A DNA stretch of 64,000 nt from Fibrobacter sp. (GTDB taxonomy: Bacteria > Fibrobacterota > Fibrobacteria > Fibrobacterales > Fibrobacteraceae). Below, in pieces: positions 19,101 to 62,660 of the stretch (position 1 is the first letter of the stretch; every line of letters begins with the position of its first letter). The translations under genes were made by a program, and so were the position numbers. The stretch lies in NCBI GenBank assembly GCA_045616805.1, contig JAZLHK010000052.1, forward strand, positions 23,140 through 87,139. The letters are read 5' to 3'. Below the pieces are notes generated by a model that was not told where the DNA came from, did no database searches, and was given only the letters and a program-made list of their open reading frames with translations.

Positions 19101-19200
19101 AAGTTTTGAGCTTTGAGCCCACTCACTTCGTTCGCTTTGAGATTGTATAATCGCGCCTTAGGCGCCTCTATCTATCTCATTGCTCATCACTGAAAGCTCG
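19101..19200. repeat. Palindromic heptad element (TGAG arm, TAATCGCGCCT..GGCGCC core, CTCA arm)
   Basis: TGAG at 19107 and 19114. Core at 19148-19166. CTCA/CTCA/CTGA/CTCG at 19176, 19183, 19190 and 19197, at 7-nt spacing. Confidence 0.8.
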
Positions 19201-19201
19201 T

Positions 19202-19573
19202 CTATCTCTTTGGATTATAATTGTTCATCAACACCATGGCAATAGCAACGCACAACATAATGACGCTGCCCACGATCACCTGCTGCTTGTGGTTATACTC
19301 GCGCTTGACATAGCTGGGATTTTCCTCATTCAGTTCCTGGAGCGTCGGTCCCTGATTCAACTTGGTACTATCAATACCATAGAGTTCAGCAATTTCCTCG
19401 TCACTCATATTCAGCGTACTTACATAAGCTGAGTCATAAGTATCCAGCTTGTCTGCGGCACTTGAAACCGCCGGCGTCAGTACGACGCAGAAAAATGCCA
19501 GTAGGAATACACCGAAGAGATTCCGGCTTTCGCCGGAATGACGAACATTGAGAGAATCACACAACAGAGTCAT
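19202..19573 (-). CDS. Hypothetical small bitopic membrane protein
   Basis: 123 aa with N-terminal and C-terminal hydrophobic segments. The 5' end of the ORF contains a REP-like hairpin, so the start is uncertain. Confidence 0.4.
   Translation of the reverse strand: MTLLCDSLNVRHSGESRNLFGVFLLAFFCVVLTPAVSSAADKLDTYDSAYVSTLNMSDEEIAELYGIDSTKLNQGPTLQELNEENPSYVKREYNHKQQVIVGSVIMLCVAIAMVLMNNYNPKR
19517..19545. repeat. REP-like hairpin GAGATTCCGGC-N-GCCGGAATGACGAA
   Basis: Stem ATTCCGG/CCGGAAT. A second copy with the same flanks lies at 26088-26118. Confidence 0.75.
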
Positions 19574-19620
19574 TCCAATAACGTCATTCTGAACTTTTTT
19601 CAGAATCTCTTTAGCCTAAA

Positions 19621-21075
19621 TTATTCCTGGGCCAGCTTGTCGAGAATTTCGTTCACCATGCCCGGGTTGGCCTTACCGCCAGACTTACGCATGGTCATAC
19701 CCACGAGGAAGCCCTTCAGTGCAACCTTACCGGCCTTGAATTCGGCGAACTGGGCAGCGTTGGCGGCACAGACTTCGCGGACGATAGCTTCGATAGCGCC
19801 AGTGTCGGCCACCTGGACCAGGCCCTTTTCCTTAACGATGTCTGCAGGATCCTTGCCGGTTTCGAACATGTCGGCAAACACGGTCTTTGCAATCTTACCG
19901 TTGATGGTCTTGTCTTCGATGAGGTTCACCAGGGCGCAGAGCTGTTCCGGCTTGATCTTCAGGTCGGCGAGACCACCTTCCAGGTCCTTCATCTTGGCTA
20001 GAAGTTCAGTGATGACCCAGTTGGCCAAGACCTTGCCGTTCTTGCAGTTCTTGGATGCGGTATCGAACCAGTCGCTGATGTCGCGGTCGTCGGTCAGCAC
20101 CTGGGCGTCGTATTCGGACACGCCGAGGTCGTTCATGAAGCGGGCGCGGCGGGCATCCGGCAGTTCCGGAAGGGTGCGGCGGATTTCTTCCACGAAGGCA
20201 GGATCGGTGACAAGACGTACCATGTCCGGTTCCGGGAAGTACTTATAGTCGTGAGCGTCTTCCTTACTGCGGATGACGATGGTCTTGTCGGCGTTGGGAT
20301 CGTAACGCTTGGTGCACTGTTCCACTTCCTTGCCAGCGTCCAGAGTGGCGGACTGCAGGTAGTATTCGGCGTTCAAAGCCTTTTCAAGGTTGGTGAAGCT
20401 GTTCAGGTTCTTGATTTCTGCACGGGTGCCGAAAGGTGCGTCTTCGGAAGCGCGGAGGGAGATGTTTCCGTCGCAGCGCATGTTGCCGTTTTCCATGTTG
20501 GCGTTGGAGACGCGGGTGTATTCAAGAGTCTGCTTGATCTTCTTGAGAACGAGAACGGCTTCTTCCGGGCTACGGATGTCCGGTTCCGTGACGATTTCGC
20601 AAAGCGGGGTGCCGCAGCGGTTTGCGTCGAAGTGAGAGTCGGTGGGGCTCATGTCGTGGATCAGCTTACCGGCATCTTCTTCCATGTGGATACGGGTAAT
20701 GCCCACACGCTTCTTGGTACCGTCGGCCTTGATGATTTCAAGCCAACCGTTCTTGCAGATGGGATGGTCATAAACCGGAAGACCGCCAGTCTGGGTAATC
20801 TGATAACCCTTGGGAAGGTCCGGGTAGAAATAGTTCTTACGGGTCCACATGGCGTTCAAATCGATTTCGCAGTTCAGGGCGAGACCCAGACGGATGGCGT
20901 ATTCCACAGCCTTCTTGTTGGGAACAGGCATGGCACCGGGCATACCCAGGCAAACCGGGCAAACGTGCTTGTTGGGGCTGGTGTTCACTTCAATTTCGCA
21001 ACCGCAGAACATCTTAGTCTTGGTAGCGAGCTGGCAATGGATTTCGAGACCAATAACGGTAGAGTAGTTAGGCAT
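19621..21075 (-). CDS. gatB: Asp/Glu-tRNA amidotransferase subunit B
   Basis: 484 aa. MPNYSTVIGLEIHCQLATKTKMFCGC... is the canonical GatB N-terminus, and a C-terminal GatB/YqeY domain is present. Confidence 0.95.
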   Translation of the reverse strand: MPNYSTVIGLEIHCQLATKTKMFCGCEIEVNTSPNKHVCPVCLGMPGAMPVPNKKAVEYAIRLGLALNCEIDLNAMWTRKNYFYPDLPKGYQITQTGGLPVYDHPICKNGWLEIIKADGTKKRVGITRIHMEEDAGKLIHDMSPTDSHFDANRCGTPLCEIVTEPDIRSPEEAVLVLKKIKQTLEYTRVSNANMENGNMRCDGNISLRASEDAPFGTRAEIKNLNSFTNLEKALNAEYYLQSATLDAGKEVEQCTKRYDPNADKTIVIRSKEDAHDYKYFPEPDMVRLVTDPAFVEEIRRTLPELPDARRARFMNDLGVSEYDAQVLTDDRDISDWFDTASKNCKNGKVLANWVITELLAKMKDLEGGLADLKIKPEQLCALVNLIEDKTINGKIAKTVFADMFETGKDPADIVKEKGLVQVADTGAIEAIVREVCAANAAQFAEFKAGKVALKGFLVGMTMRKSGGKANPGMVNEILDKLAQE

Positions 21076-23430: not shown

Positions 23431-24840
23431 ATGAAAAAAATGTTTCTCGCTTCCTGCCTCCTGGCTGCATCTGTTTTCGCAGCCCCTGAAGCAAAGACTG
23501 AAGCAGTAGCCCCCGCAGCTGCACCGGCACCCGCTGCTGCACCGGCAGAACAGGCTGCACCTGCAGCTGAAGCTCCGAAGGCTGAAGCCGCACAGGCTCC
23601 TGCTGCCGAAGCTGCTCCTGCTGAAGCCGCTCAGGCTCCTGCTGCTGAAGCAGCACCCGCTGAAGCTGCTCCTGCTGAAGAAGTAAAGGCTGCTGAAGCT
23701 GCACCTGCCGAAGAAAAGGCTGAAGAAGTCAAGGCCGCTGAAGCTCCGAAGGCTGAACCGGCACCAGCAGCAAAGCCCGCAAAGAAGCGTAAGAAAAAGA
23801 AGATGATTGAAAACGCTATGCTCCAGACTGCCAAGCTGGACTTTGACGTTCTCGCTGACTTCGAATTGGAAGCCGGCAAGGTCTTCTGGAATACCGAAGA
23901 CGACGTTTATGGCGACAACCTGGAAACCTGGAACGGCGAAGCAAACTTCGCTATCCGTGCCGAAGGCGAAGACTTCAAGGGCAAGATCGGTGTTGCTTTC
24001 TATCCGGGCGACCTTAAGGCCGCATCTGACGACTCCGACGTTGCAAATACCAAGGAAGCTCGCAAGCAGGCAAAGAAGGACAAGAAGGAAGCTCTCGCTA
24101 ACGACAAGTATGAAACCGTAGCTGACTACTTCAGCCTGGACGAAGCATGGGCAATGCAGAATACCGACCTCTTCGTATTCAAGGTCGGTCGTTGGGACAA
24201 CACTGACAAGAACGGCGACTACTTCGGTGGTTACATCGATGGTTACCTGGCCGGCTTCATGTCTACCCAGGCTTCTGAAAACCAGTTGCAGTTCGGCTTC
24301 ACCCCGACTGAAAACCTGGACCTCTTCGTTTCTCTCATTAGCGGTTCCCCGAACCTGGATAAGGGCGACCTCCGTGCCGCATTCAACTTCCACGGTCTCG
24401 AAAGCCTCCCGGACCTCAATGTCCAGTTGGCCTACCGCAGCAACCTCTTTGATGCAATTTACGATGCTGACGTAGACATCGTTCACAATGCATCCTTGAA
24501 GGCTCGCCTCCCCATCGTGAAGAATGCCTTCTCCATCTTCGGTGAAGCAGCCCTCATCAACATGGATCCCAACGACGACATGGTCATGCCGGTTACCGGT
24601 GGCTTTGCCTTCTACACTCCTGTTGTTGACCGCATCATCATTGAAGCTGAATATGTTAAGGATCGTAGCGAAAACGAAGACTTCATTCAGTTCAACAGCA
24701 AGCATGTGAAGGACGTTCTCGGTGCAATCTACCTGGAAAAGGCATTCACCGACCGCTTCAGCCTGTCTGCTGGTTTCCACAGCTACGGTTCTACCAAGGA
24801 CTTCATGTTGTCTGGCAACCTGGTTGGCCGTATCAACTAA
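23431..24840 (+). CDS. Porin-like outer-membrane protein with an Ala/Pro/Glu/Lys-rich N-terminal region (paralog of 56390-58069)
   Basis: Signal peptide MKKMFLASCLLAASVFA, then about 100 aa of low-complexity APAAEA repeats and KKRKKKK, then about 340 aa with a beta-strand-like pattern. Confidence 0.6.
   Translation: MKKMFLASCLLAASVFAAPEAKTEAVAPAAAPAPAAAPAEQAAPAAEAPKAEAAQAPAAEAAPAEAAQAPAAEAAPAEAAPAEEVKAAEAAPAEEKAEEVKAAEAPKAEPAPAAKPAKKRKKKKMIENAMLQTAKLDFDVLADFELEAGKVFWNTEDDVYGDNLETWNGEANFAIRAEGEDFKGKIGVAFYPGDLKAASDDSDVANTKEARKQAKKDKKEALANDKYETVADYFSLDEAWAMQNTDLFVFKVGRWDNTDKNGDYFGGYIDGYLAGFMSTQASENQLQFGFTPTENLDLFVSLISGSPNLDKGDLRAAFNFHGLESLPDLNVQLAYRSNLFDAIYDADVDIVHNASLKARLPIVKNAFSIFGEAALINMDPNDDMVMPVTGGFAFYTPVVDRIIIEAEYVKDRSENEDFIQFNSKHVKDVLGAIYLEKAFTDRFSLSAGFHSYGSTKDFMLSGNLVGRIN
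23581..23670 (+). repeat. In-frame 39-nt tandem repeat (about 2.3 units) encoding AEAAQAPAAEAAP
   Basis: Units at 23581-23619 and 23620-23658, plus a partial third unit. Confidence 0.8.
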
Positions 24841-29011: not shown

Positions 29012-29026
29012 GAGCGCAAAGATAGA

Positions 29027-29075
29027 AAAGTGATTAGTGATTAGAGGTTAGTGATTAGAATTGTAGATAGAGAAT
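29027..29075. repeat. Heptad array (TTAGTGA type)
   Basis: Units in one register: AAAGTGA TTAGTGA TTAGAGG TTAGTGA TTAGAAT TGTAGAT AGAGAAT. Confidence 0.85.
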
Positions 29076-35471: not shown

Positions 35472-35499
35472 TTCACAACTCAATACTCATAGCTCATCG
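35472..35499 (-). repeat. Heptad array (NNNTGAG type) immediately after the lolE stop
   Basis: The minus strand reads TAG-CGATGAG-CTATGAG-TATTGAG-TTGTGAA. Confidence 0.85.
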
Positions 35500-36747
35500 C
35501 TATTCATGCCTAATCGCTCCCACGGGGTCAAGACGGCTTGCCTTCCAGGCCGGCAAAATAGTTGCAAGAATGCACAGGGCAATTCCAATCACGAACACAA
35601 GAACAACATCCAGCAAGTGCACGGAAATCGGGAAATAGGGAATCACATAGACGTCGCCGGGCAAGGTAATGAAGTGATACTTTTCCTGCAGTTTGCAAAG
35701 AATCAGGCCAATGGATCCGCCAACAAGGGTTCCTCCAACACCAATAAAACTGCCCATGAGCATAAACACACGCATGATTCCGGCCTTGCTGAAACCCATG
35801 CTGCGGAGAATGCCGATTTCCTTCGTCTTATCGATAACCACCATAATCAGGGAACTGATAATGTTGAAGGCGGCCACAAGAATAATGAGACAGATGACAG
35901 CAGCTACAATGAACTTTTCATAGTTCATCCACTTCAGCAGGGTGATATTCTTGGACTTCCAGTCCAGGACGTAATACGGGTAGGACAGCCACTCCGCAAT
36001 TTTATCTACGGCTTCACCAGCCTTCCAGTGGTCCGTAATTCGGAACTGGATACCGGAAACGGCATTACCGATACCCATGAGTTTTTGCAACTGGTGCAAA
36101 CCTACATAGGCTAACTGGCCATCGTATTCATAGGTACCCGTTTCAAAGATGCCGCTTACCACGCACATCATCATGCGAGAACCACCAGCACTGACAGCCT
36201 CATCCGGGCTCTGGAAAAGCTGAAGCACAAGCTTATCGCCAACAACCACACGAAGACGGTTGGCAAGACCGCTACCCAGAAGAATTCCCGGACGGAGAGT
36301 TCCGTTCAGATCTTCCAGACTGTCAACGGAATACTCGCCCCACTTCATGTACTTGTGAATATCGGTAACACCCTTGGAGGTTTCCTGATCGATACCGTAA
36401 ATCACGATACCATCATTCACCTTCTTACTGCTGATTCCCACCTTATAGATGATGAAGGGAGATGCGGCAACCACTTCGGAGTCACGGGAGCGCACTTCCT
36501 GAATCAGACTGTCATAGGCAACGATATGTTCCCCATTGTAGGCCATCAGTTCGAAGTGAGCGTCCTTCCCTATCATCTGGGCGGTGACTTCTTCTTCAAA
36601 GCCATTGACCGCAGCAAGGGCAACCACCAGCGCAAAGACGCCGATACTTACCCCAAGCATACTGAAGATACCGATAAGCGAAACAAAGAGACTCTTACGC
36701 TGAGCCCCCAGGTAACGCCATGCAATAAGCCATTCAAGTTTATTCAT
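35500..36747 (-). CDS. lolE: Lipoprotein-releasing system permease (LolC/E, FtsX-like)
   Basis: 415 aa with MacB-like periplasmic domain architecture and a C-terminal FtsX domain. Confidence 0.8.
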   Translation of the reverse strand: MNKLEWLIAWRYLGAQRKSLFVSLIGIFSMLGVSIGVFALVVALAAVNGFEEEVTAQMIGKDAHFELMAYNGEHIVAYDSLIQEVRSRDSEVVAASPFIIYKVGISSKKVNDGIVIYGIDQETSKGVTDIHKYMKWGEYSVDSLEDLNGTLRPGILLGSGLANRLRVVVGDKLVLQLFQSPDEAVSAGGSRMMMCVVSGIFETGTYEYDGQLAYVGLHQLQKLMGIGNAVSGIQFRITDHWKAGEAVDKIAEWLSYPYYVLDWKSKNITLLKWMNYEKFIVAAVICLIILVAAFNIISSLIMVVIDKTKEIGILRSMGFSKAGIMRVFMLMGSFIGVGGTLVGGSIGLILCKLQEKYHFITLPGDVYVIPYFPISVHLLDVVLVFVIGIALCILATILPAWKASRLDPVGAIRHE

Positions 36748-36753
36748 ACACAG

Positions 36754-36860
36754 TTGCGAGCTATGAGTTGTGAGCTATGAGTTGTGAGCTATGAGCTATG
36801 AGTATTGAGCGCATCAGGGCTCACAGCGCAGCGGGCTCACTTCTCATCACTCAATGCTAT
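36754..36860. repeat. Palindromic heptad element filling the lysS-lolE spacer
   Basis: Eight units on the plus strand (36754-36809): TTGCGAG CTATGAG TTGTGAG CTATGAG TTGTGAG CTATGAG CTATGAG TATTGAG. Then GGGCTCAC twice, then CTCA at 36836, 36843 and 36850. Confidence 0.9.
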
Positions 36861-36861
36861 G

Positions 36862-39443: not shown

Positions 39444-39450
39444 GAGTTCA

Positions 39451-39541: not shown

Positions 39542-39667
39542 CGCGTTAGGGGGCGTCGCACGTAGGTGGCAAGACCCGTAGGGGCTTGATGAGCGCAGCG
39601 AGCAGCACCCGACCTGCGCCTTCACCGTAATTTGGGCTCCTCATTGGCGCAGGGAACGCCCTTACAG

Positions 39668-39702: not shown

Positions 39703-39729
39703 TCCTAAAAGAATCATTTCATCCCCAGA

Positions 39730-39784: not shown

Positions 39785-42700
39785 ATGAGTATTACAAAGA
39801 ATGATTTATGGGTCGGTGTTGACGTCGGTTCTACAACTGTTAAGATTGCCGTCGTCGATCCGGAAACCTCAAAGCTTTTACATTATACGTATCAAAGACA
39901 CAACGCCATGCAGGCCCAGAAGGTCCATGAAGTGTTGCGTGAAGCCCATGGTCTTTTCCCGGGCAAGAACTTCAGAGTCGCATTCTGCGGTAGCGGCGGT
40001 CAGCCCTTCGCCGATGCAACCCACTCATTCTTTGTGCAGGAAGTGGTGGCAAACGCCCTTGCTGTCCGCGCTACCTATCCCGATACTCGAGTTGCCATTG
40101 AACTGGGTGGTCAGGACGCCAAGGTGGTGTTCTTCGAAAAGGACCCCACCACGGGTAAGCTTATCGCCAGCGACATGCGTATGAACGGTGTCTGCGCAGG
40201 TGGTACCGGCGCATTTATCGACCAGGTGGCAGAACTCCTCCGCATCAAGACCGAAGCCTTCGAAGGCTTCGCCAAGCGTGGTCAGAAGGTTTATGAAATC
40301 TCTGGCCGTTGCGGTGTGTTCGCCAAGACCGACATCCAGCCCATGCTGAACAACGGTATCGCCAAGGAAGATATCGCCCTGTCCAGCTTCCACGCCATCG
40401 CCAAGCAGACCATCGGCGGTCTTGCCCAGGGTATGGAAATCAAGCCGCCCGTCATCTTCGAAGGTGGCCCGCTGACCTTTAACCCGACCCTCGTCCGCGC
40501 CTTCAAGGAACGCCTTGGCATTACTGACGAGCAGGCCATCGTTCCTGAACACTCCGAAGTACTCGTAGCAATGGGTGCCGCACTTTCCGTAGGCTCCATG
40601 TTCGCAGATCAGGAATGCTATTACCGCGAAGAAGGTTCCCTGGACTCCCTGGTCCACTTCAACGAAATTCGCCAGGCCGAACACAAGGCCAAGGCTGCCG
40701 CCGACCTGTTCTTCAAGGACGATGCCGAATACAAGCAGTTCCTGGAAGACCACAAGATGGCAGGCAACAACTACCCGCAGCCCGCCTCCGGCTCCGAACT
40801 GAACGTTTACCTGGGTATCGACGCCGGCTCCACCACCACCAAGTTCGTGTTGATGGATGAACAGGACAACATCGTGGACGGCTTCTACGCCTCCAACGAC
40901 GGTGAACCTCTGGCCGTGCTCAAGCGCGCCATGAACGAGCTTATCGACCGTTACGAAGAATACGGTTGCAAGCTGAACATTCTGGGCGTAGGTACCACCG
41001 GTTACGGCGAACAGCTTTTCGCCAAGGCAGTCCATGCAGACTACCACACCGTGGAAACCGTGGCTCACGCCAACGCCGCCCAGCGTCTCTGCCCCGACGT
41101 ATCCTTCATCCTGGATATCGGCGGTCAGGACATGAAGGCCATCTCCGTTACCGACGGCGTGGTCACCGGCATCATCCTGAACGAAGCCTGCTCCTCCGGT
41201 TGCGGTTCGTTCATCGAAACCTATGCCCGTTCCCTTGGCATCCCCATGGAAAAGATCGCCGAAATGGCCTTCAACGCCAAGAGCCCGTCCCAGCTGGGTT
41301 CCCGCTGCACCGTGTTCATGAACAGTTCCATCATTACGGAACAGCGCGACGGTAAGCAGCCCGAAGACATTATCGCAGGTATCTGCCGTTCCATTATAAA
41401 CAACGTTTTCACCAAGGTGATCCGTATCCGCAACCTCAACACCCTCGGTAAGAAGGTGGTGGTCCAGGGCGGTACCTTCAAGAACAACGCTGTGCTCCGC
41501 GCCTTTGAACAGTACACCGGCCTCAAGCCCATCCGTCCAGAACGTCCGGGTGAAATGGGTGCTATCGGTATTGCGCTCCTCACCAAGAAGTTCATGGAAG
41601 AAAAGCGCAAGGAAAATCCGGAACTGAAGTCCAGCTTCATCGGCCTCGACGCCATGAAGACCTTCAGCTGGCACAACCAGCCGGGTCAGCTCTGCCAGTA
41701 CTGCACCAACCACTGCTCCCGTACCATCGTGACCTTTAGCGATGGTCAGAGCTTCGTCACCGGCAACCGTTGCGAACGTGGTGAAGTCACCGCCGACCCC
41801 AACGATCCGAAGACCAAGGCCCTGATTGCAGAAATCAACAAGAAGATGATGTCCGTGCCCGACATGATCAAACGCACCAACCAGCTCCTGGTGAAGGACT
41901 ACGCTCCCGCTAAACTGGCTGAACCGCAGCTGAAGGCCGACGGCACTCAGAAGACCATCGGCATTCCCCGCGCTCTTGAATTCTGGGCATCCCTCCCCTT
42001 CTGGAAGGCTTTCTTCACAAGCCTCGGCTACACCGTTGTTGTAAGCCGCAGCTCCGACTACAAGATGTTCGAAGCAGGCCTCCACAGCGTGCCTTCTGAC
42101 ACCGTCTGCTTCCCGGCAAAACTGGTCCACGGCCACGTGCTTTCCCTTGTTGACAAGAAGGTGGACCGCATCTTCTTCCCCATGATGGTTTCTGTTCCCA
42201 GTGACCACACCAAGTTTGACGCAACCGCCGTCTGCCCCGTGGTCCAGGCCTATCCCAACGTCTGTAAGAACACTGACGATCCGGAACGTAACTTCAACAT
42301 TCCCATGGATCAGCCCATCTTCCACTGGTTCAACGCCAAGTTGCGCCGTTCCCAGACCATCGACTGGTTCAGCACCAACTGGGGTCTCGACAAGAAGATT
42401 ATCAGCAAGGCTGTAGATGAAGGCGAAAAGGCCCTCAACAACTACCGCACAACCTTGCTGGAAGAAGGCCAGAAGATTCTGGATGATGTCCGCGCAAAGA
42501 ACACCTTTGCCGTTGTGATCGCCGGCCGCCCCTACCATGTGGACCCGCTGATCAACCACAACATCGCCACCCACTTTACCGCCATGGGCATTCCGGTGCT
42601 TACCACCGAATCCCTCCCGGGCGTATACGACCAGGATGTTCCCAGTTCCACCCGCGTGGAAATCAAGAACACCTTCCACCTGCGTATGCTTGGCGCAACC

Positions 42701-44239
42701 ATGATTGCCGCCAAGGACCCCAACGTGGAACTGGCCCAGATCGTGAGCTTCGGTTGCGGTCATGACTCCATCCTGACCGACGAAATGATGCGCATGCTGC
42801 ATCGCGATTCCAACAAGGAAATGCTGATGCTGAAACTGGACGAAGGCGACGCCCGCGGCCCTGTAGGCATCCGTATCAAGAGCTTTATCGAAACCGTGAA
42901 GGCCCGCCGTGCAGCAAACCTGCCCGACAAGCCGGAATCCAACGAACCGCTCTTCACCACTCCGTTCCTCAAGGAAGACAAGGAACGCCGTACCATCCTG
43001 GTACCGAACCTCTCCCCCGCTTTCAGTGTGCTGGCAGCAGCCTACATGCGCGCCAAGGGTTACAAGGCAGCAAGCCTCCCCGTGGCCGACAAGCGCGCCA
43101 TTGAACTGGGTAAGAAGTTTGTCCATAACGACATCTGCTTCCCCTGCCAGGTGAACATCGGCGAAAACCTCCTGTGGCTGGAACAGCATCCCGAAGTCAA
43201 GCAGACTGAAGTTTCCATCGGCCTTTCCAAGAACTGCGAAAACTGCCGCGCCGTGCAGTACCCGGTTCTTGCCCGTAAGGCTCTAGACGAAGCCGGCTAC
43301 AAGGATGTTTCCATCATCACCACCGGTACCGATAACAAGAATATGCATCCGGGCTTTGCCCTTGGTCTCGACTTCCGTCTCCACATGCTGTGGGGCCTCG
43401 TGACCATGGATGCCATCGAAATCATGTACCGCGCACTTCGCCCCTACGAAGTTAACGCCGGCGACACCCAGAAGGTCTACGACGAATGGATGCCCAAGGT
43501 CATGGAACGTGCGGCAATCCTTTCCAAGCTGGAACTTGCAAAGCCCACTGCTGTGATCGAGCTCTTCCGCCAGACCATCGATGCTTTCAACTCTGTTGAA
43601 ATCACCGAGGATCGTAAGAAGGGTATCCGCAAGCCTCGCGTTGCCGTGCTTGGCGAAATCCTCATGAACTACCATCCCAGTGCCAACGGTTTCATCGAAG
43701 AATACCTGATGAACAACGGCATGGAAGTCTACCTGCCGGGCATGACCGACTTCTTCCGCGTGGACGAAATCGTGAAGGCCGAAAAGCTGAAGCGCGGTTT
43801 CTCCGCCAATCCTATTGAAGACCGCGTCATCGGTGGTGCAACCGCCAAGGTTTACACCCACGCCCTGAACGTTGTCCAGAAGGAAATGGAAGCCCGCTTC
43901 AAGCTGTACGAACATCATGCAGACTGCTACGAATTGATCCACATGGTTGGAGACATTATCGACCCCACCTACAACACCGGCGAAGGCTGGCTGATTCCGG
44001 GCGAAATTCTGTACAACTCCCAGCATGGCATCAACAGCCATATCATTCTGCAGCCTTTTGCCTGCCTTGCAAACCACATTTCCGGCCGCGGCCTCTCCAA
44101 GGCTGTTAAGGAACGTTGCCCCCATATCCAGATTCTGTCTTTGGACTACGATCCGGATACCAGCTTTGCAAACATCGAAAACCGTTTGCAGATGCTGATC
44201 ATCAACGCCCGCGAACTGGAAAAAGCTAATCAGCATTGA
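39785..44239 (+). CDS. Giant fusion protein: two BcrAD/BadFG-type ATPase (activase) domains plus a 2-hydroxyacyl-CoA-dehydratase-like/DUF2229 region
   Basis: Start MSITKNDLWVGVDVGSTTVKIAV. A second ATPase domain begins LGIDAGSTTTKFVL. The C-terminal roughly 750 aa contain Cys motifs (CQYCTNHC, CERG). 1484 aa in total. Confidence 0.8.
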   Translation: MSITKNDLWVGVDVGSTTVKIAVVDPETSKLLHYTYQRHNAMQAQKVHEVLREAHGLFPGKNFRVAFCGSGGQPFADATHSFFVQEVVANALAVRATYPDTRVAIELGGQDAKVVFFEKDPTTGKLIASDMRMNGVCAGGTGAFIDQVAELLRIKTEAFEGFAKRGQKVYEISGRCGVFAKTDIQPMLNNGIAKEDIALSSFHAIAKQTIGGLAQGMEIKPPVIFEGGPLTFNPTLVRAFKERLGITDEQAIVPEHSEVLVAMGAALSVGSMFADQECYYREEGSLDSLVHFNEIRQAEHKAKAAADLFFKDDAEYKQFLEDHKMAGNNYPQPASGSELNVYLGIDAGSTTTKFVLMDEQDNIVDGFYASNDGEPLAVLKRAMNELIDRYEEYGCKLNILGVGTTGYGEQLFAKAVHADYHTVETVAHANAAQRLCPDVSFILDIGGQDMKAISVTDGVVTGIILNEACSSGCGSFIETYARSLGIPMEKIAEMAFNAKSPSQLGSRCTVFMNSSIITEQRDGKQPEDIIAGICRSIINNVFTKVIRIRNLNTLGKKVVVQGGTFKNNAVLRAFEQYTGLKPIRPERPGEMGAIGIALLTKKFMEEKRKENPELKSSFIGLDAMKTFSWHNQPGQLCQYCTNHCSRTIVTFSDGQSFVTGNRCERGEVTADPNDPKTKALIAEINKKMMSVPDMIKRTNQLLVKDYAPAKLAEPQLKADGTQKTIGIPRALEFWASLPFWKAFFTSLGYTVVVSRSSDYKMFEAGLHSVPSDTVCFPAKLVHGHVLSLVDKKVDRIFFPMMVSVPSDHTKFDATAVCPVVQAYPNVCKNTDDPERNFNIPMDQPIFHWFNAKLRRSQTIDWFSTNWGLDKKIISKAVDEGEKALNNYRTTLLEEGQKILDDVRAKNTFAVVIAGRPYHVDPLINHNIATHFTAMGIPVLTTESLPGVYDQDVPSSTRVEIKNTFHLRMLGATMIAAKDPNVELAQIVSFGCGHDSILTDEMMRMLHRDSNKEMLMLKLDEGDARGPVGIRIKSFIETVKARRAANLPDKPESNEPLFTTPFLKEDKERRTILVPNLSPAFSVLAAAYMRAKGYKAASLPVADKRAIELGKKFVHNDICFPCQVNIGENLLWLEQHPEVKQTEVSIGLSKNCENCRAVQYPVLARKALDEAGYKDVSIITTGTDNKNMHPGFALGLDFRLHMLWGLVTMDAIEIMYRALRPYEVNAGDTQKVYDEWMPKVMERAAILSKLELAKPTAVIELFRQTIDAFNSVEITEDRKKGIRKPRVAVLGEILMNYHPSANGFIEEYLMNNGMEVYLPGMTDFFRVDEIVKAEKLKRGFSANPIEDRVIGGATAKVYTHALNVVQKEMEARFKLYEHHADCYELIHMVGDIIDPTYNTGEGWLIPGEILYNSQHGINSHIILQPFACLANHISGRGLSKAVKERCPHIQILSLDYDPDTSFANIENRLQMLIINARELEKANQH

Positions 44240-44275
44240 GCAGTGAGTAATGAGCCATGAGTAATGAGTTGTGAG
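44234..44275 (+). repeat. Heptad array (NNNTGAG type) whose first unit contains the activase stop codon
   Basis: TGA at 44237 (the stop codon), 44244, 44251, 44258, 44265 and 44272. Confidence 0.92.
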
Positions 44276-44361
44276 CAACTACTCGAACTCATGCAAAAAG
44301 GGACGTCGGTTTTTAACCGGCGCCCTTTATGTTTGCAGGAAAAAATTCTAAATTTGGCGCC

Positions 44362-45963
44362 ATGCTGAACGTTTCTAATGTAAGTCTTCAATATGGTAGC
44401 CGCGTCCTCTTCAAGGATGTGAATCTTTCCTTCAAGCCCGGTAACTGCTACGGCGTTATCGGTGCAAACGGCGCAGGCAAATCTACATTCCTTAAAATTC
44501 TCTCTGGTGATTTGGAACCGAATACTGGTGAAGTCACCAAGAACCCCGGTGAACGTATTGCAGTCCTTAAGCAGGACCACTTCGCATACGAACAGAATAC
44601 CGTTCTTGAAACAGTCATGATGGGCTTCCCGGAACTGTACGAACTGGGAAAGAAGCGTGACGAACTGTATGCCCTTCCGGAAATGACCGAAGAACAGGGC
44701 GTGCAGGCTATGGAAATCGAAACCCGCTTTGGTGAAATCGGCGGTTATGAAGCAGACTCCAGCGCAGCTGTTCTCCTGAAGGGTCTTGGCATTCCTGAAG
44801 AATTCCACTACAGCCTCATGGCAGACCTGGATGGCAACCAGAAGATCCGCGTACTCCTGGCTCAGGCCCTGTTCGGCAACCCCGACATTCTTCTGCTTGA
44901 CGAACCGACCAACCATTTGGACTTGGATACCGTCGCCTGGCTTGAAGACTACCTGGAACGTTTTGAAAACGTTGTGATCGTGGTGAGCCATGACCGTCAC
45001 TTCCTGAATACCGTCTGTACCCACACTTGCGATATCGACTATGGCAAGATCAATATCTACGGCGGTAACTATGAATTCTGGTACGCAGCAAGCCAGCTGG
45101 CCCAAAAGCAGCGCAAGGACCAGAACCGTCGTGCAGAAGAAAAGATCGAAGAATTGAAGGCTTTTATTCGCCGCTTCGCATCCAATGCAGCAAAGGCAAA
45201 GCAGGCAACCTCCCGTAAGAAGCTCCTGGACAAGATGACCGTGGAAGAAATGCCGGCCTCCAGCCGCAAGTTCCCCTGGGTCAACTTCAAGATGGACCGC
45301 GAACCGGGTAAGATCGTTCTTGAAGTGAAGAACATGGATATTGATGGTGGCGACGGCATCGTCTGCAAGGGTCTGAACTTCAACCTGAACAATGGCGACA
45401 AAGTGGCTCTCGTCGGTGAATACGGCACTCTGAAGACGGCATTTTTCCAGATGATCGCAGGTGAAATCAAGGCTCCGGAAGGAGTCATCAAGTGGGGCAA
45501 CACCATCACCCAGAACTACTTCCCGAAGAACAACGACGCCTACTTCCAGAGTGACCTCTCCCTGGTGGATTGGCTGCGCCAATACAGCAAGGAACAGGAC
45601 GAAACCTTCATCCGCGGTTTCCTCGGCCGCATGCTCTTCACCGGCGAAGAAGCACTGAAGTGCTGTAATGTTCTCTCCGGTGGTGAAAAGGTCCGCTGCA
45701 TGCTCTCCAAGATGATGCTCAGCAATGCAAACTGCCTGTTGCTGGACGAACCCACCGCTCACCTGGACTTGGAAGCCATTACCGCCCTGAACAACGGCCT
45801 TACCGCATTCCAGGGTCCCATCATCTTCTGTACCCAGGACCATGAATTTGCACAGACCGTTGCAAACCGTGTTCTGGAACTGACACCGGATGGCGTCCTC
45901 GACCGTTCAATCACCTTCGACGAATGGTACGAGTCCAAATCCGCAAAGTCCAAGCGCAAGTAA
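44362..45963 (+). CDS. ABC-F family ATPase (YbiT/EttA-like translation factor type)
   Basis: Two ABC cassettes without TM domains (GANGAGKST; second cassette has LSGGEKVR). An alternative start lies at 44329. Confidence 0.85.
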   Translation: MLNVSNVSLQYGSRVLFKDVNLSFKPGNCYGVIGANGAGKSTFLKILSGDLEPNTGEVTKNPGERIAVLKQDHFAYEQNTVLETVMMGFPELYELGKKRDELYALPEMTEEQGVQAMEIETRFGEIGGYEADSSAAVLLKGLGIPEEFHYSLMADLDGNQKIRVLLAQALFGNPDILLLDEPTNHLDLDTVAWLEDYLERFENVVIVVSHDRHFLNTVCTHTCDIDYGKINIYGGNYEFWYAASQLAQKQRKDQNRRAEEKIEELKAFIRRFASNAAKAKQATSRKKLLDKMTVEEMPASSRKFPWVNFKMDREPGKIVLEVKNMDIDGGDGIVCKGLNFNLNNGDKVALVGEYGTLKTAFFQMIAGEIKAPEGVIKWGNTITQNYFPKNNDAYFQSDLSLVDWLRQYSKEQDETFIRGFLGRMLFTGEEALKCCNVLSGGEKVRCMLSKMMLSNANCLLLDEPTAHLDLEAITALNNGLTAFQGPIIFCTQDHEFAQTVANRVLELTPDGVLDRSITFDEWYESKSAKSKRK

Positions 45964-48580: not shown

Positions 48581-48690
48581 CGAGCAATGAGCCGGTTGCG
48601 TCGCAACCTCTGAGTTCATTTAATCGCGCCTCCGGCGCCAAACCTTTTCTCACAACTCATAGCTCACTGCTCACAACTCACCGCTCATAT
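48581..48690. repeat. Palindromic heptad element filling the greA-tatD spacer
   Basis: CGAG at 48581 and TGAG at 48588. Hairpin GGTTGC/GCAACC. Core TAATCGCGCCT-CC-GGCGCC at 48621-48639. CTCA at 48649, 48656, 48663, 48670, 48677 and 48684, ending 3 nt before the ATG. Confidence 0.92.
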
Positions 48691-56389: not shown

Positions 56390-58069
56390 ATGAAATCCAT
56401 GAAGCTTTCTGCAATCGCTCTCGGCCTCGTTGCCGCCAGCGCATTTGCACAGAATGCCGCTCCCGCAGCAGCACCCGCTGCAGCACCCGCACAACCCGCC
56501 GCAGCAGCACCTGCAGCTCAGCCCGCACCGGCTGCCGCTCCTGCCGCTGAAGCTCCGAAGGCTGAAGCCGCTCCTGCAGCACAGGCAGCACCCGCCGCAG
56601 CACCTGCTGCACAGCCTGCAGCTCCTGTTGCCAACGCAGACTCCGTAAAGGCTGCTGAAGAAGCCAAGAAGGCTGAAGAAGAAAAGGCCGCCGCCGAAGC
56701 TAAGAAGGCTGAAGAAGAAAAGGCCGCCGCCGAAGCAAAGAAGGCCGAAGAAGAAAAGGCCGCCGCTGAAGCCAAGAAGGCTGAAGAAGCTAAGACTGCT
56801 GAAGCTCAGAAGACCGAAGCCGCTCCTGCAGAAAACACCAATCCGGGTGAAGTTGCAAACGCAGCAGGCAACGCTCTTGACGCTCTCAAGGCTAGCATGA
56901 ACGAAGAAACTTCCAAGGCAAGCATGGAAGTGAAGTTCTCTGGCGAAGTTGAATTCGACGCCTACACCAACGACGTTCTCGCTGATGACGATCTCAGACA
57001 CTCCTATGCAACTACCGCCGACCTCAACATCGACGTGAAGTTCAACGAAAAGTGGTCTGCATACTTGGGAATTGAAGCTGACGCCGACAACGAAGCCCCG
57101 GGCTTTGGCTACAATGGCGCATACGTTCAGTACAAGCCGGCTGATTTCTTCGCCGTCAAGCTGGGCGACCTGACCTTCAGTGAAGGTGCATTCCAGGCAT
57201 ACTATGGCTACGATGATCCGACCTACGATGCTGCTGGCATGAAGGAACACGACATCCGCGGTCTCGAAATCGATCTGGCGGGTCTCGAACTCGGCATCGG
57301 TTTCGGCCGTAATGGCAATGACTACTACGGTAAGGGCGGCGCTAACTGCGATGGTCTCGAAGGTGACGACAAGGACTTCTGCGAAGACTTGAACAAGAAG
57401 TTCGCCGGCATTTCCACCTCTCGTAACATCTACAACGCTCATATGGCATACGAATTCAACTATGCCGGTCAGCACCTCCGTCCGTATGTTGACTACAAGT
57501 CCTATCAGCAGGCAGAACACAACGAACTGCACGCTGGTATCGATGCAGGCCTCACCATCGGTGGCTTCAGCTTCCGTGCTGTGTATGGCTTCCACGCAGA
57601 CTTCCTGGGTGACGACGACGAAAGCGTCAGCGCCTACGGTGAAGTCAACAATGCAAAGAAGAAGAATGCAGACGTAACTTCTGCTGCTCACACCATCTTG
57701 GCTGAACCGACCTTCGATGTCAGCATGTTCCAGATCAAGACCTCCTTCTTCTATGCAATCATTGATGATGGTGACAATGGCAACCAGGAATATGCCGGTG
57801 AAATTCCGGAATACATGTTCATCTATGCTGAACCGGCCCTCAAGCTGGCTGGCTTCATCAAGCTGGGCATTCCTGTTGAATACCACACCAACACTCTGAA
57901 CGACGACGAAAGCATCGAAACCCTCGACGTTGGCGGTCGTTTCTACCTGTCCCCGGTTGAAAACCTGGACATCACCGCCTTCGGCATGGTTGACATTCCG
58001 ATGGGTGACGACAACGACAATGACGACACCGCACTTCGCTTCGGTGTTGAAACCGTATTCTCCTTCTAA
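56390..58069 (+). CDS. Porin-like outer-membrane protein with an Ala/Pro-rich and E/K-rich N-terminal region (paralog of 23431-24840)
   Basis: RBS AAGGAG. Signal peptide ...AASAFA. An AP-rich segment is followed by AAAEAKKAEEEK repeats, then about 400 aa that are beta-rich. The protein ends ...VETVFSF (aromatic C-terminus). Confidence 0.65.
   Translation: MKSMKLSAIALGLVAASAFAQNAAPAAAPAAAPAQPAAAAPAAQPAPAAAPAAEAPKAEAAPAAQAAPAAAPAAQPAAPVANADSVKAAEEAKKAEEEKAAAEAKKAEEEKAAAEAKKAEEEKAAAEAKKAEEAKTAEAQKTEAAPAENTNPGEVANAAGNALDALKASMNEETSKASMEVKFSGEVEFDAYTNDVLADDDLRHSYATTADLNIDVKFNEKWSAYLGIEADADNEAPGFGYNGAYVQYKPADFFAVKLGDLTFSEGAFQAYYGYDDPTYDAAGMKEHDIRGLEIDLAGLELGIGFGRNGNDYYGKGGANCDGLEGDDKDFCEDLNKKFAGISTSRNIYNAHMAYEFNYAGQHLRPYVDYKSYQQAEHNELHAGIDAGLTIGGFSFRAVYGFHADFLGDDDESVSAYGEVNNAKKKNADVTSAAHTILAEPTFDVSMFQIKTSFFYAIIDDGDNGNQEYAGEIPEYMFIYAEPALKLAGFIKLGIPVEYHTNTLNDDESIETLDVGGRFYLSPVENLDITAFGMVDIPMGDDNDNDDTALRFGVETVFSF
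56660..56790 (+). repeat. In-frame 36-nt tandem repeat (about 3.6 units) encoding EAKKAEEEKAAA
   Basis: Units at 56660-56695, 56696-56731 and 56732-56767, plus a partial unit. Confidence 0.9.
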
Positions 58070-60645: not shown

Positions 60646-61200
60646 ATGGTAAGATGGAAAAGTTCCCCGAATCTCGTTTGGATGGACCTGGAAATGTCCG
60701 GTCTTGACCCCGAAAAGGACGTCATTCTCGAAGTAGCCACCATCGTTACCGACGCTAACCTGAGAACCATTACCGAAGGCCCTGTTCTGGCCGTTCACCA
60801 GCCAGAAAACGTCTTCGAAGGCATGGACGACTGGAACACCCGTCACCATACCCAAAGCGGCCTTGTGGACCGCTGCCGCAAGTCAAAACTGACCGTAGAA
60901 GATTGCGAAAAAATGGTTCTGGACCTAATTAAGCCCTACACAGAAAAGGGTGGCAATCTTCTGTGCGGCAATTCCATCACCCAGGATAGACGTTTTCTCT
61001 ACAAGTACATGCCCAAGCTATCGGCATGGCTCAACTACCGAAACATTGACGTCAGTTCCATCAAGGAACTGAGTTTCCGGTGGTACCCCAACCTGCCCGA
61101 ATTCCAGAAAATGGAAAAACACGAGGCCCTAGAGGACATCCGGGAAAGCATTGCCGAACTAGCCTATTACCGCAAGACTATTTTTAAAGACCGTATTTAA
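60646..61200 (+). CDS. orn: Oligoribonuclease
   Basis: NLVWMDLEMSGLDPEKD... is DEDDh exonuclease-like. 184 aa. Confidence 0.9.
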   Translation: MVRWKSSPNLVWMDLEMSGLDPEKDVILEVATIVTDANLRTITEGPVLAVHQPENVFEGMDDWNTRHHTQSGLVDRCRKSKLTVEDCEKMVLDLIKPYTEKGGNLLCGNSITQDRRFLYKYMPKLSAWLNYRNIDVSSIKELSFRWYPNLPEFQKMEKHEALEDIRESIAELAYYRKTIFKDRI

Positions 61201-61205
61201 GAACA

Positions 61206-62594
61206 ATGACCATCAAGCCCTACATTGAACCCAAGGATAGACTTCCCTATGCCGTGAGAATGCGCAACCGCTGCATTGCAGCCATTGTCTTCGTCATTTT
61301 GTGCGGCATTATAGGATCCTGCATTTTCGGAGACAAGGAAGAACCAAGCCAGAAAGCAGAAGAAACCAAAGAAGCGGCACAAATCGAGACAAGCGAAAAC
61401 ACAGCTCCCGCCGAAGAAGTTGCCAGTTTAGAAGAGAGCTCCCCCGAAGCGAAAGCCTCCATCAACGAAAGCATCATGGACAAGCCAACCGTAGAGGATA
61501 TAGCCTCTACTCAGGCAACCGTCACAGCGGAAGTTTCCCCCGACAATCCTCCTGAAGTGGAAATCATCGACAGCACCCACATCAAGGCGCAGAAAAATGT
61601 CTTCTTGGCAGAAAAGATTGACAACCTGCTCCGTCGCTTCAAGCCAGAAAATGCAATTATCCTGATTGTAGATCCCAAATCCAACGAAATCATCGCCTGG
61701 GGTGAACGCAAGGACAACGCCATACAGAGTAAGCCGGACTATCTTTCCCGCAATACCTTCCCTGCCGCCTCACTGGCAAAGACCATTACCATCGCAGCCG
61801 CCATGGAAAGCAACCGTTATTCGTTGAACAGCGTCATCCCCATGATCGGGCGTGCCCACCACCTGTACAGGAACCAGCTCCGCGTTCCAGAAAACTACCA
61901 CGGCCCCACCGTGGAACTGCAAGACGCCTATGCCCATTCCTACAATCCGCCCCTGGCCTTGATCGGCATGGGTGTCGGTGCTAGCAAGCTGAAGGCAGCA
62001 GCCCACAAGCTTGGATACAACATGAACTATGCCGGAGGGCTGCCAGGCCGTTCCATCTATGCCCCTCCTGATACCGGCTACGGTCTGGCAGAGGCAAGCT
62101 GCGGCTTTACGGAAGCAACCACGCTCTCCCCCCTCCAGGCAGCAGCGCAGGTTCGAGCAATTCTCATGAAGAAGCCCCTGGAAATTCCCTGGGCATCCAA
62201 TCTTGATGGCTACGCTCCTAAGACACGTCTAGCTCTTGACGTAGGAACCTTCAGCGAAAATACCTACTACGGCCTCCGTCAGGCTATGCTACGTTCCGTA
62301 ACCCACGGTACTGCCCACAAGAACGTCTCTACAAAGAACATGGCCCGCAAGAATTACGACGCACTGTACATCGGCGGAAAGACAGGCTCCCTGGATGGCT
62401 CCGATCCCAAGGGTCGTTATGACTGGTTTATGGGTTTTGCCCAGTCCAAGGAAGACCCGAACAACGCCATTGTCATTGTTGTCCTGCAAATCTACGACAA
62501 TCAGGGGTTAAGGCCTCAGCCCACAACTCAGGTTACCGCAATGCTCATCAACTACTGGGCACACCAGAACGTGACGAATAAGAGTAGGAAGTAG
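61206..62594 (+). CDS. Penicillin-binding-protein-type transpeptidase domain protein
   Basis: N-terminal TM segment. SxxK (ASLAK), SxN (SYN) and KTG (GGKTGS) motifs in order. Confidence 0.75.
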   Translation: MTIKPYIEPKDRLPYAVRMRNRCIAAIVFVILCGIIGSCIFGDKEEPSQKAEETKEAAQIETSENTAPAEEVASLEESSPEAKASINESIMDKPTVEDIASTQATVTAEVSPDNPPEVEIIDSTHIKAQKNVFLAEKIDNLLRRFKPENAIILIVDPKSNEIIAWGERKDNAIQSKPDYLSRNTFPAASLAKTITIAAAMESNRYSLNSVIPMIGRAHHLYRNQLRVPENYHGPTVELQDAYAHSYNPPLALIGMGVGASKLKAAAHKLGYNMNYAGGLPGRSIYAPPDTGYGLAEASCGFTEATTLSPLQAAAQVRAILMKKPLEIPWASNLDGYAPKTRLALDVGTFSENTYYGLRQAMLRSVTHGTAHKNVSTKNMARKNYDALYIGGKTGSLDGSDPKGRYDWFMGFAQSKEDPNNAIVIVVLQIYDNQGLRPQPTTQVTAMLINYWAHQNVTNKSRK

Positions 62595-62660
62595 GAAGTA
62601 GACAGTAGACAGTAGACAGTAGGCAGTAGACAGTTGGCAGTGGTTAGTGCTTAGTGGTTA
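62584..62660 (+). repeat. Heptad array (GTAGRMA type) that includes the last codons and stop of the PBP-like gene
   Basis: TAG at 62585, 62592 (the stop codon), 62599, 62606, 62613, 62620 and 62627. It then decays to GTTGGCA GTGGTTA GTGCTTA GTGGTTA. Confidence 0.92.

Follow-up and report, generated by a model that had tools for sequence, protein, structure and literature searches.

A stretch of 64,000 nucleotides from Fibrobacter sp. (contig JAZLHK010000052.1, positions 23,140 to 87,139, referred to here as the window) carries tandem arrays of 7-nt units in its intergenic spacers, which are probably degenerate heptanucleotide arrays of the short tandemly repeated repetitive (STRR) type and the arm sequences of a family of small cassettes. 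A full cassette would comprise a 5′ arm of G- or purine-rich heptads, a gene of the family PF05635/TIGR02436 (23S rRNA intervening-sequence protein, IVP) and a complementary C- or pyrimidine-rich arm, and it would lie precisely between one gene's stop codon and the following gene's start codon or, in some bacteria, inside a 23S rRNA helix. The forms found in the window all lack an open reading frame (ORF), being palindromes of arm, GC hairpin and arm that fill whole spacers, plus solo arms, and we conclude that the window elements are ORF-less members of the structure class that encloses IVP genes.

The window was searched with Tandem Repeats Finder, with a scan for 3-mers recurring at exact periods and with a lag-7 self-similarity scan, and these recovered the tandem 7-nt arrays that a first-pass annotation, made from the letters alone, had noted at intergenic sites. 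Tandem Repeats Finder returned period-7 arrays at 29029-58, 36758-802, 39458-81, 39504-35, 44228-68, 48649-87, 62583-641 and 62639-60. Three-mers repeated at least four times at an exact period merged into 11 arrays when the period was 7 and gave no array when it was 4, 5, 8 or 10; recurrences at periods 6, 9 and 12 were coding repeats, and period 7 was the sole non-triplet period with arrays. Self-similarity at lag 7 (at least 21 of 28 matches) was found in 8 scanning windows at 6 loci, and at the same threshold lags 3-6, 8-11 and 13 gave 0 in the window, as did 50 shuffles. The annotation had proposed a comparison against shuffled and coding sequence, in which no arrays appeared in the shuffles and the lag-7 windows were exclusively intergenic. 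The pattern TGAG(N3)x4, with at most one mismatch, matched 15 times in the window compared to 0 times in 100 dinucleotide-preserving shuffles. Within the TGAG family (30 units), the core positions held 1.8-2.0 bits each and the three variable positions 0.3-0.6 bits, and units of 14 and 21 nt have been recently duplicated at 36752-36795 (96% match). Head-to-tail, exact 7-nt units in at least 3-4 copies are thus present in the window, dispersed over ten sites, all of them intergenic, and in several unit families. At the Rfam gathering threshold, a tmRNA gene (41-401, minus strand, 173 bits, tag peptide AEENYALAA) was the sole match in the window and no array was matched, and a scan by E-value of 35.3-48.8 kb gave no match on arrays. 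The window elements matched each other via heptad units only, with no long inter-element matches. They are distributed as follows.

19083-19201, minus strand: whole-spacer element between the stop of a 123-aa ORF (19202) and a purO-like start (19082).
29027-29075, minus strand: solo array, reading (TTAGTGA)n on the plus strand and, in leuA/cimA sense, G-poor (TCACTAA)n.
35472-35499, minus strand: solo TGAG arm, in gene sense TGAGCTA TGAGTAT TGAGTTG TGAA.
36748-36861, minus strand: whole-spacer paired element from the lysS stop (36862) to the lolE start (36747), containing no ORF.
39444-39541, no strand assigned: paired element adjoining the ruvX start (39443, minus strand).
39668-39771, plus strand: two arrays, (TGAGNNN)4-5 at 39671-39702 and G-poor (ACTNNNN)5 at 39739-39771.
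44234-44296, plus strand: array with a short inverted stretch, (TGAGNNN)6, whose first TGA (44237) is the activase stop, followed by CTACTCGAACTCA.
48581-48690, plus strand: whole-spacer paired element from the greA stop (48578-80) to the tatD ATG (48691).
62583-62660, plus strand: solo G-rich array, (AGTAGRM)x8 then (AGTGGTT/AGTGCTT)x3, with the stop TAG (62592) of a penicillin-binding protein (PBP) gene inside.

The relation of these elements to IVP genes became apparent on comparison with 75 Fibrobacter species loci (1.42 Mb; individual loci carry L numbers). The lysS|lolE spacer of L126, L134 and L185, orthologous to window 36748-36861, contains a gene of about 120 aa, and genomes of the L127/L128 type carry a cassette in the activase|ABC-F spacer. 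Pfam and NCBIfam assigned both spacer genes to PF05635, the IVP family, which is equivalent to the four-helix-bundle family TIGR02436; the family is Avd-like, being related to the protein Avd of diversity-generating retroelements (DGRs). All eight IVP genes of the Fibrobacter loci were flanked by a heptad array and its inverted complement, that is, by a G-rich and a C-rich arm, and a further Fibrobacter copy, in a batA operon, also lies between inverted heptad arms. At the lysS|lolE junction, an IVP gene between such arms was found in L126, L134, L185, L196-L203 and L327-L341. Its orthologues are widespread: P0070 is indexed in 115 collection blocks, P0035, P0094 and P0008 are also present, and every location shown for these four was the lysS|lolE junction. 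The arms at this junction were of the following kinds.

5′ GTAGACA/GTAGGAA with 3′ TTCCTAC.
5′ TTAGTGG with 3′ CTAACCA.
5′ TGAGGT with 3′ ACCTCA.
5′ AGACGAG with 3′ CTCGTCT.
TGAG with CTCA in the window, where the element is ORF-less.

A single site has thereby been occupied by at least five arm families, each self-complementary, with a species-specific sequence in which complementarity is kept. Other window arrays resemble cassette arms as well. The array from 29012 matches an arm of the IVP cassette of L126 at 93% identity over 30 nt, and the array from 62595 matches the 5′ arm of the lysS|IVP|lolE cassette that is widespread in Fibrobacter, at 93-97% identity over 30-32 nt. In style, the 3′ arm of 48581-48690 is almost the same as those of the IVP cassettes of L221, L324 and L258. 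As a separate observation, L126, L134, L332 and L337 carry small hairpins with GAA or GAAG loops (TAAGCGAAGCTTA, TAGGCGAAGCCTA, TAATCGGCGAAGCCGATTA) which contain the lysS stop codon and its complement and stand 5′ of the first heptad arm.

Arms of one cassette pair much more strongly with each other than with foreign arms. Duplexes of cognate arms had a mean energy of -49.5 kcal/mol, compared to -33.7 kcal/mol for non-cognate ones, and the cognate arm ranked 0-2 of 25 in 17 of 25 cases. Among 15 distinct inverted pairs of Fibrobacter, 12 had the G-rich arm first, none had the C-rich arm first and 3 were ambiguous; because the structure is palindromic, this polarity holds on both strands and for either gene orientation. 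A rule that TGAG units follow stops and CTCA units precede starts was dropped, being logically the same statement as the G-rich arm coming first and carrying no information on gene orientation.

The IVP cassettes also show signs of moving as units. Cassette plus arms were 98.9-99.6% identical among L127, L138, L141 and L185, in which flanking coding DNA was 81-87% and 91-95% identical. In L127 this cassette lies at about 14.3-14.9 kb; with L163 included, it was 99% identical across species with flanks that differ by 5-19%, and the L163 copy has suffered an internal deletion of about 170 nt which removes the middle of the ORF. The reverse pattern was observed between L127 and L128, with flanks 94-95% and the cassette 86% identical. 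A nested arrangement is present at 3000-4250 of L091, where a second IVP gene, bringing its TTAGCTN/AAGCTAA arms along, splits the ORF of an IVP gene whose arms are TGAGTWA/AACTCAT.

The same layout was found outside Fibrobacter. A tblastn search of PLSDB with one Fibrobacter IVP yielded 31 plasmid records, 27 of them cyanobacterial, and the order arm, IVP gene, arm was observed in 12 of the 12 copies inspected (ten cyanobacterial, one from Gemmatirosa and one from Azospirillum), which included the following.

Nostoc edaphicum: (AGTAGGG/AGTGGGG)x8, the gene and (TCCCTAC)x4, between the ribonucleotide-reductase genes (beta and alpha).
Anabaena sp. 90 and Pseudanabaena: IVP cassette between cas6 and cas4.
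Picosynechococcus: IVP cassette between cas10 and cmr3.
Stanieria, Geminocystis, Leptolyngbya, Calothrix and two further Nostoc plasmids: IVP gene between heptad arms.
Gemmatirosa plasmid: IVP cassette of period 8.
Azospirillum: a true 23S rRNA intervening sequence, with arms CAGAGGA CGGATGA CAGAGGA CGGAGGA and TCCGTCC TCTGTCT TCTGTCA TCCGTCT.

In a set of 21 cassettes, the 5′ flank had a best period of 7 in 17 and of 8 in 3; G exceeded C in the 5′ arm of 17 and C exceeded G in the 3′ arm of 19. The generalization that IVP genes are always co-oriented with their neighbours, true in Fibrobacter, failed on three cyanobacterial plasmids and was abandoned. A metagenome scan with the window 18-mer TGAGCTATGAGTTGTGAG matched 110 loci, none of this species. 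In six of them (L240, L221, L236, L243, L258 and L282) the 18-mer forms the 5′ arm immediately ahead of an IVP gene, after which (NNNCTCA)n runs to within a few nucleotides of the next ATG, an approach that resembles the tatD and lolE starts of the window. In L324, each of three successive spacers in an rfb-like operon contains a cassette, and the locus also has an ORF-less, window-like mini-palindrome of TGAG and CTCA units. TGAG(N3)x5 is taxonomically widespread among the matches listed from IMG/VR. IVP genes in cas loci had been noticed earlier and listed as possibly cas-associated, with flanking repeats unmentioned (PMC3936711). Considering their positions inside cas, rfb-like and ribonucleotide-reductase operons, promiscuous insertion looks more likely than functional association.

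Within Fibrobacter, period-7 arrays are a genus-wide phenomenon. The lag-7 scan of the 75 loci detected 65 regions (none at lags 4, 5, 8, 10, 11 and 13), the number of arrays in the set amounting to 65-98, and a period-7 array was present in 5% of the 130-nt flanks after the stops of long ORFs, compared to 0-0.1% for periods 5, 8 and 10. The arrays are not conserved modules, being gained and lost rapidly among relatives. The activase|ABC-F spacer of the closest relatives L121, L122, L124 and L126 is 20-25 nt long and heptad-free; at the same spacer, L153 carries a TGAG array as in the window, with cores intact and N3 changed, L123 carries GGTTAAA units, and L131, L133 and L180 carry other arm-hairpin-arm elements. 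The greA|tatD spacer of L142 measures 2 nt, the PBP|lgt spacer of L158, L164, L165 and L191 17-19 nt, and the length of the ruvX|activase spacer varies between 75 and 341 bp. Units are lineage-specific, drawn from a common vocabulary (AGTAGGA/AGTAGAC, TTAGTGG/TTAGTGA, AGACGAG, AATGGAT/ATCATCA, TTAGTCA/TTGGTCA), and copy number differs in 7-nt steps (the 3′ arms of L327 and L331; the window and L153; the window and L123). The first-pass annotation had held that a functional module could not be maintained if related genomes lacked the arrays at orthologous spacers with no replacement, and loss of precisely this kind occurs at greA|tatD (L142), activase|ABC-F (L121, L122, L124, L126) and PBP|lgt (L158, L164, L165, L191), which speaks against a module required by the host. 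Between its two suggestions, that of a MITE-like element with heptad arms is better supported, on account of presence and absence among relatives, lineage-specific units, the match to IVP-cassette arms and the signs of unit-wise movement; the suggestion of a host-required functional module fared worse.

Three of the window elements (19083-19201, 36748-36861 and 48581-48690) fill whole spacers and are of similar size, as had been pointed out, at 110-119 bp instead of 100-110 bp. Inverted arm pairs, also described earlier, form long-stem terminal repeats at 36748-36861, 39444-39541 and 48581-48690, are weak at 19083-19201 and 44237-44300 and do not occur in solo arrays. Taken together, the window holds three well-paired whole-spacer elements, two weaker ones (19083-19201 and 44234-44296) and solo arms at 29027-75, 35472-99, 39668-771 and 62583-660; RNA folds of the whole spacers had z-scores from -2.9 to -4.8. 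The element at 36748-36861 reads, in gene sense, three to four TGAG units, a GC-rich centre (about 36813-36832), eight CTCA units, about 10 nt and the ATG, and it is predicted to form an end-to-end RNA hairpin of -40.8 kcal/mol (z = -3.2; arm duplex z = -4.9). At 48581-48690 the order is CGAGCAATGAGCC, the hairpins GGTTGCGTCGCAACC (48594-48608) and GCGCCTCCGGCGC (48626-48638), and (CTCANNN)6 at 48649-48687, with a fold z of -4.8 and an arm-duplex z of -3.1. The pair at 39444-39541 is made up of (ATTGATG)3 at 39451-39481 and inverted (TTATCAA)n at 39500-39541 (arm duplex z = -5.1); it is partly common to L134 and L123 at the same spacer and missing from the 75-84-nt spacers of L121, L122, L126, L180 and L184. 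In 19083-19201, the hairpin GCGCCTTAGGCGC (19153-19165) has short GAG-type units to one side and CTCA units to the other; the fold of this element (z = -2.85) is not matched by its weak arm-to-arm duplex (z = -0.2). TGAG units are found there at 19107/19114, as the annotation had it, with just two clean units per arm, and the orthologous spacer of L143/L171 has 79 nt and other heptads, AATTCTT/CATTCTG.

The arrays lie close to stop and start codons, in agreement with what had been noted first. The upstream stop codon is itself the first array unit at TGA 44237 and TAG 62592, and the array 35472-35496 adjoins the lolE stop, beginning 3 nt past it. Towards the next gene, CTCA units end 3 nt before the tatD ATG (48691) and about 10 nt before the lolE ATG (36747). 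The solo arm 35472-35499 stands 3 nt past the lolE stop codon (35500-35502) and ahead of the lolD start (35447), with a fold z of +0.23, and the orthologous spacer of L126, L144 and L185 is 0-10 nt long. The array 29027-29075 is followed closely by the -7 box TATCTTTG (29017-29024 in minus sense) and then by the start codon ATG 29011; it has no inverted partner and folds with z = +0.25. Its reverse complement reads AATCACT AATCACT AACCTCT AATCACT AATCACT, in which AATCACT fits the WATCACW heptads bound by the omega repressor (pSM19035), probably by coincidence; this likeness was rejected on context. Of the two arrays at 39668-39771, whose mutual complementarity is not clear and which were counted among the solo arms, the ACT array (39739-39771) runs up to the -7 box TACATTTG and to ATG 39785, the start codon of the BcrAD/DUF2229 activase gene, and L123 carries a 14-unit ACT-core array at its place. 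In the ruvX|activase spacer, the two array pairs are separated by a GC-rich stretch of 125 nt (39542-39667); no copy of it was found in any fetched locus and it had no Rfam match. The array 44234-44296 is followed by a terminator-like hairpin (44301-44326), the -7 box TAAATTTG (44349-44356) and the ABC-F ATG 44362, which is probably the start of this gene rather than 44329, so that the activase|ABC-F spacer measures 122 nt. Downstream of 62583-62660 stand AAGGAG and the lgt ATG (62679). GCGCC-N3-GGCGC hairpins were considered as a dispersed family similar to repetitive extragenic palindromic (REP) sequences, which was rejected with just two copies in the window.

The stress that had been laid on stop triplets is statistically sound across the genus. 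All three frames were closed on at least one strand in 86% of 84 arrays, compared to 54% of tandems of random intergenic heptamers and 22% of random intergenic 48-mers; the G-rich strand was closed in 79% of the arrays versus 45% expected, and the density of start triplets was 0.018 on the C-rich strand versus 0.038 in intergenic DNA, the significance of these figures being somewhat overstated because the counts include some orthologous arrays. An intergenic fraction of 48/84, obtained with an ORF-based mask, was not relied on, as antisense ORFs were counted as coding. The strand asymmetry, with stops in the first arm and few starts in the second, fits translational neutrality of an inserted element, and the enrichment of stops would allow such an element to occupy the gap from stop to start codon with translation undisturbed. 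In the mechanism that we propose, the arms of the transcript would pair into a long imperfect stem, which RNase III might cut in the manner known from 23S rRNA intervening sequences. The first arm, rich in TGA and TAG, would halt ribosomes in all frames, and the second, G-poor and nearly devoid of start triplets, would extend to the next start codon, so that an operon could receive the insert in either orientation without harm to translation. Array length would go up and down through replication slippage.

Several findings weigh against taking the window arrays as cassette arms. A jackhmmer search over six-frame ORFs found no IVP gene in the window, and the link between window and cassettes therefore rests on the common site, the architecture and the arm sequence. 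Two of the five window elements regarded as paired pair weakly, and the elements are not near-identical copies, sharing just a unit vocabulary, unlike a recently amplified miniature inverted-repeat transposable element (MITE). In the Fibrobacter loci, 84 arrays stand against 8 IVP genes (about ten to one), most arrays have no demonstrable cassette history, and IMG/VR loci picked by the TGAG pattern contained an IVP gene in 2 of 120 cases. The plasmid sample stems from a single tblastn query and consists mostly of cyanobacteria, which are heptamer-rich anyway. The lysS|lolE copy looks vertically inherited genus-wide, a pattern as compatible with a gene that is retained and may be of use as with a selfish one. 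Reading filled versus empty sites revealed no target-site duplication; the arms abut stop and start codons directly, and no transposase was associated with the arrays. To our knowledge, IVP is not a transposase and no mobility mechanism has been described for it. The ORF-less arrays may be relics of cassettes, non-autonomous copies, or pre-existing arrays that attracted the gene.

Among the alternatives, the arrays could be plain long simple sequence repeats (SSRs), born and decaying by slippage in AT-rich spacers with neither element nor function, on which IVP genes merely land or survive. We regard this as unlikely, although heptanucleotide SSRs are the commonest class in many bacteria and a polymerase-slippage bias has been proposed for them (Mrazek 2007, as cited in PMC4679880). 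The 14- and 21-nt duplications (36752-36795), the 7-nt difference between L327 and L331, the rapid turnover with empty sites in relatives and the large excess of arrays over IVP genes would all be expected from it. Slippage alone, however, does not explain an invariant 4-nt core next to three nearly random positions, nor one unit vocabulary, and even one 18-mer, at many loci and in unrelated organisms; nor does it account for inverted pairing with a 12:0 polarity, for an excess of stops over random heptamer tandems or for arms that travel with a gene. The phase-variation contingency class of SSRs was also discarded, as the units are degenerate and the neighbours are greA, tatD, lysS, lolE, leuA, ruvX and lgt.

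It is improbable that the arrays are regulatory sites at which a host protein (S1, a cold-shock protein, a TRAP- or HutP-like protein or a heptad-binding repressor) binds mRNA or DNA as a multimer and tunes the adjacent gene. TAnnTTTG at 29017-29024, 39769-39776 and 44349-44356, presumably a Bacteroidetes-type -7 promoter box of leuA/cimA, the activase gene and the ABC-F gene, stands just about 5 nt upstream of the respective start codons, and the box precedes the activase gene in nearly all 75 Fibrobacter loci. Such a distance implies near-leaderless mRNAs, and because the box is so near the start codon, some pre-start arrays lie over the promoter and not in a 5′ untranslated region. Arrays do cover the -10 to -45 region upstream of these boxes (29011, 39785), others, which are G-poor, abut start codons that have no Shine-Dalgarno sequence (48691, 36747), and a 4-nt conserved core at fixed spacing would suit a multimeric binder; moreover, regulation has been proposed for the TAACTGA repeats of Beggiatoaceae, which have the same placement (PMC4679880). 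Against this, the array neighbours are unrelated housekeeping genes (purO-like, leuA/cimA, lolD, lolE, lysS, ruvX, ABC-F, greA, tatD, PBP and lgt), the same genes have no array or another unit in close relatives, half of the arrays stand after stops and not before starts, and no candidate regulator is linked to them.

More improbable still is a translational insulator selected by the host, in which arrays would be kept to stop out-of-frame or read-through ribosomes in all frames. The three-frame closure (86% versus 54%; 79% versus 45% on the G-rich strand) and the arrays that begin at or within the upstream stop codon (44237, 62592) would be accounted for, but these stops are equally explained as making an inserted element harmless, the arrays are not conserved at orthologous junctions, many relatives have spacers of 2-25 nt without a substitute, and the common Fibrobacter units AGACGAG and CACATTC contain no stop on either strand. 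Finally, transcription terminators or attenuators, with GC hairpins and arms acting as intrinsic and possibly bidirectional terminators, are very improbable despite the GC-rich hairpins central to several elements and the hairpin 44301-44326, which has a T-rich tail and recurs in L184, since terminator-like sites in 34.5-50 kb were not above shuffles (23 vs 17.6 +/- 4.9), the centre hairpins at 19153, 48594 and 48626 have no T-runs and only 44304-44322 qualifies, hairpins are missing from the solo arrays and several elements are located within what look like operons (lysS-lolE-lolD).

Returning to heptad arrays as cassette arms, a wider proposal is advanced here tentatively, as a serious possibility rather than a probable one: bacterial heptanucleotide arrays in general (STRRs, TAACTGA-type and Fibrobacter arrays) may be the arms and footprints of one widespread, hitherto unrecognized class of mobile cassette with an Avd-like IVP gene, which would be inserted between genes (cas, rfb and ribonucleotide-reductase operons) or into 23S rRNA helices and excised from transcripts via the arm stem, the protein acting on the arms. 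STRR-type heptanucleotide repeats have been fingerprinting targets for decades without explanation. The IVP family is abundant, its structures are solved and it is related to Avd, and we know of no role for it outside DGRs. If the arrays are indeed the arms of IVP cassettes, these two puzzles would become one system, which predicts that RNase III cleaves within the arms, that the protein binds heptad-bearing nucleic acid and that insertion between stop and start codons proceeds in whole units. It would also change the reading of IVP genes inside cas or biosynthetic operons and draw attention to a frequent cause of variable spacer lengths and broken assemblies in the genomes of Fibrobacter and cyanobacteria. 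The cross-phylum association of heptad arms with IVP genes would be the part of most consequence, should it survive a genome-wide census. Literature searches retrieved no paper combining Fibrobacter with heptanucleotide repeats and none linking IVP, S23p or four-helix-bundle genes with heptamers, STRRs or tandem repeats, with an incomplete coverage that does not prove novelty.

Some features of the window lie apart from the arrays. The activase gene (39785-44239) encodes 1484 aa, with 95% identity to Fibrobacter metagenome-assembled genomes (MAGs), 89% to F. succinogenes-like MAGs and 77% to F. intestinalis. A Fibrobacter-like activase locus (74% aa identity, full-length match) is present on contig L160, which is labelled 'Deltaproteobacteria bacterium' and may be mis-binned. 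Coding tandem repeats with periods of 15-39 nt, rich in Ala, Pro, Glu and Lys, occur at 23500-23740 and 56450-56800, and the two ORF pairs holding them had no Pfam match on either strand. A sub-threshold match to a fluoride riboswitch at 45472-45519 (minus strand), inside ABC-F coding sequence, scored 22.3 bits against a gathering threshold of 34 (E = 0.018) and is most likely due to chance.

The arrays can finally be compared with known systems. TRAP (G/U)AG sites, HutP UAG-N4 sites and omega-repressor WATCACW heptads consist of regularly spaced short cores, with period 7 in HutP sites and omega heptads. Fibrobacter arrays have neither a conserved link to an operon or regulator nor conservation at orthologous sites, the likeness is probably coincidental, and these similarities were rejected on context; placement in the leader of a particular operon is not conserved, the neighbours are unrelated housekeeping genes and orthologous spacers occur without arrays. 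MITEs and REP sequences, with the bacterial interspersed mosaic elements (BIMEs), are likewise short, non-coding, palindromic, intergenic and dispersed, with presence/absence polymorphism. Unlike them, the window elements do not form a family of near-identical copies, showed no target-site duplication when filled and empty sites were read, have no transposase linked to them and have arms of tandem heptads in place of a unique inverted repeat. The annotation had also named STRRs as an analogy and held that they do not match, which was too strong, since the arrays are the same kind of object as STRR or long-SSR heptanucleotide arrays. The units TTGGTCA/TTAGTCA of L131, L133 and L190 correspond to the STRR2 unit. 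In the strict sense, STRRs belong to heterocystous cyanobacteria only and the window and its relatives are Fibrobacter, whose units are, unlike STRRs, degenerate (a 4-nt core plus three variable positions) and often arranged as inverted arm pairs around a hairpin or gene; common to both are tandem 7-nt units in several families, intergenic dispersal and copy-number changes in 7-nt steps (Mrazek 2007). The TAACTGA direct repeats of marine Beggiatoaceae, cyanobacteria and some Bacteroidetes, for which translational regulation was proposed (MacGregor 2015, PMC4679880), have other unit sequences, and neither inverted arm pairs nor an enclosed gene are described for them in that paper. They are similar in being heptamers before starts without a Shine-Dalgarno sequence or, reversed, after stops, in showing 7-nt indels and in their patchy distribution, which includes the Fibrobacteres-Chlorobi-Bacteroidetes (FCB) group (PMC4679880).

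A precedent for the full cassette is provided by 23S rRNA intervening sequences that carry an S23p/IVP ORF, which were reportedly described by Ralph and McClelland in 1993. In Leptospira and Coxiella, this ORF lies in the loop and the terminal inverted repeats are cut by RNase III (PMC4990558). The Fibrobacter and cyanobacterial copies differ in lying between protein-coding genes and not in rRNA, and the window elements in having no ORF. Both nevertheless place an ORF of the same family in a stem loop, the intervening sequences are regarded as selfish and suspected of mobility, and in Azospirillum such an intervening sequence has arms that are themselves built of heptads.

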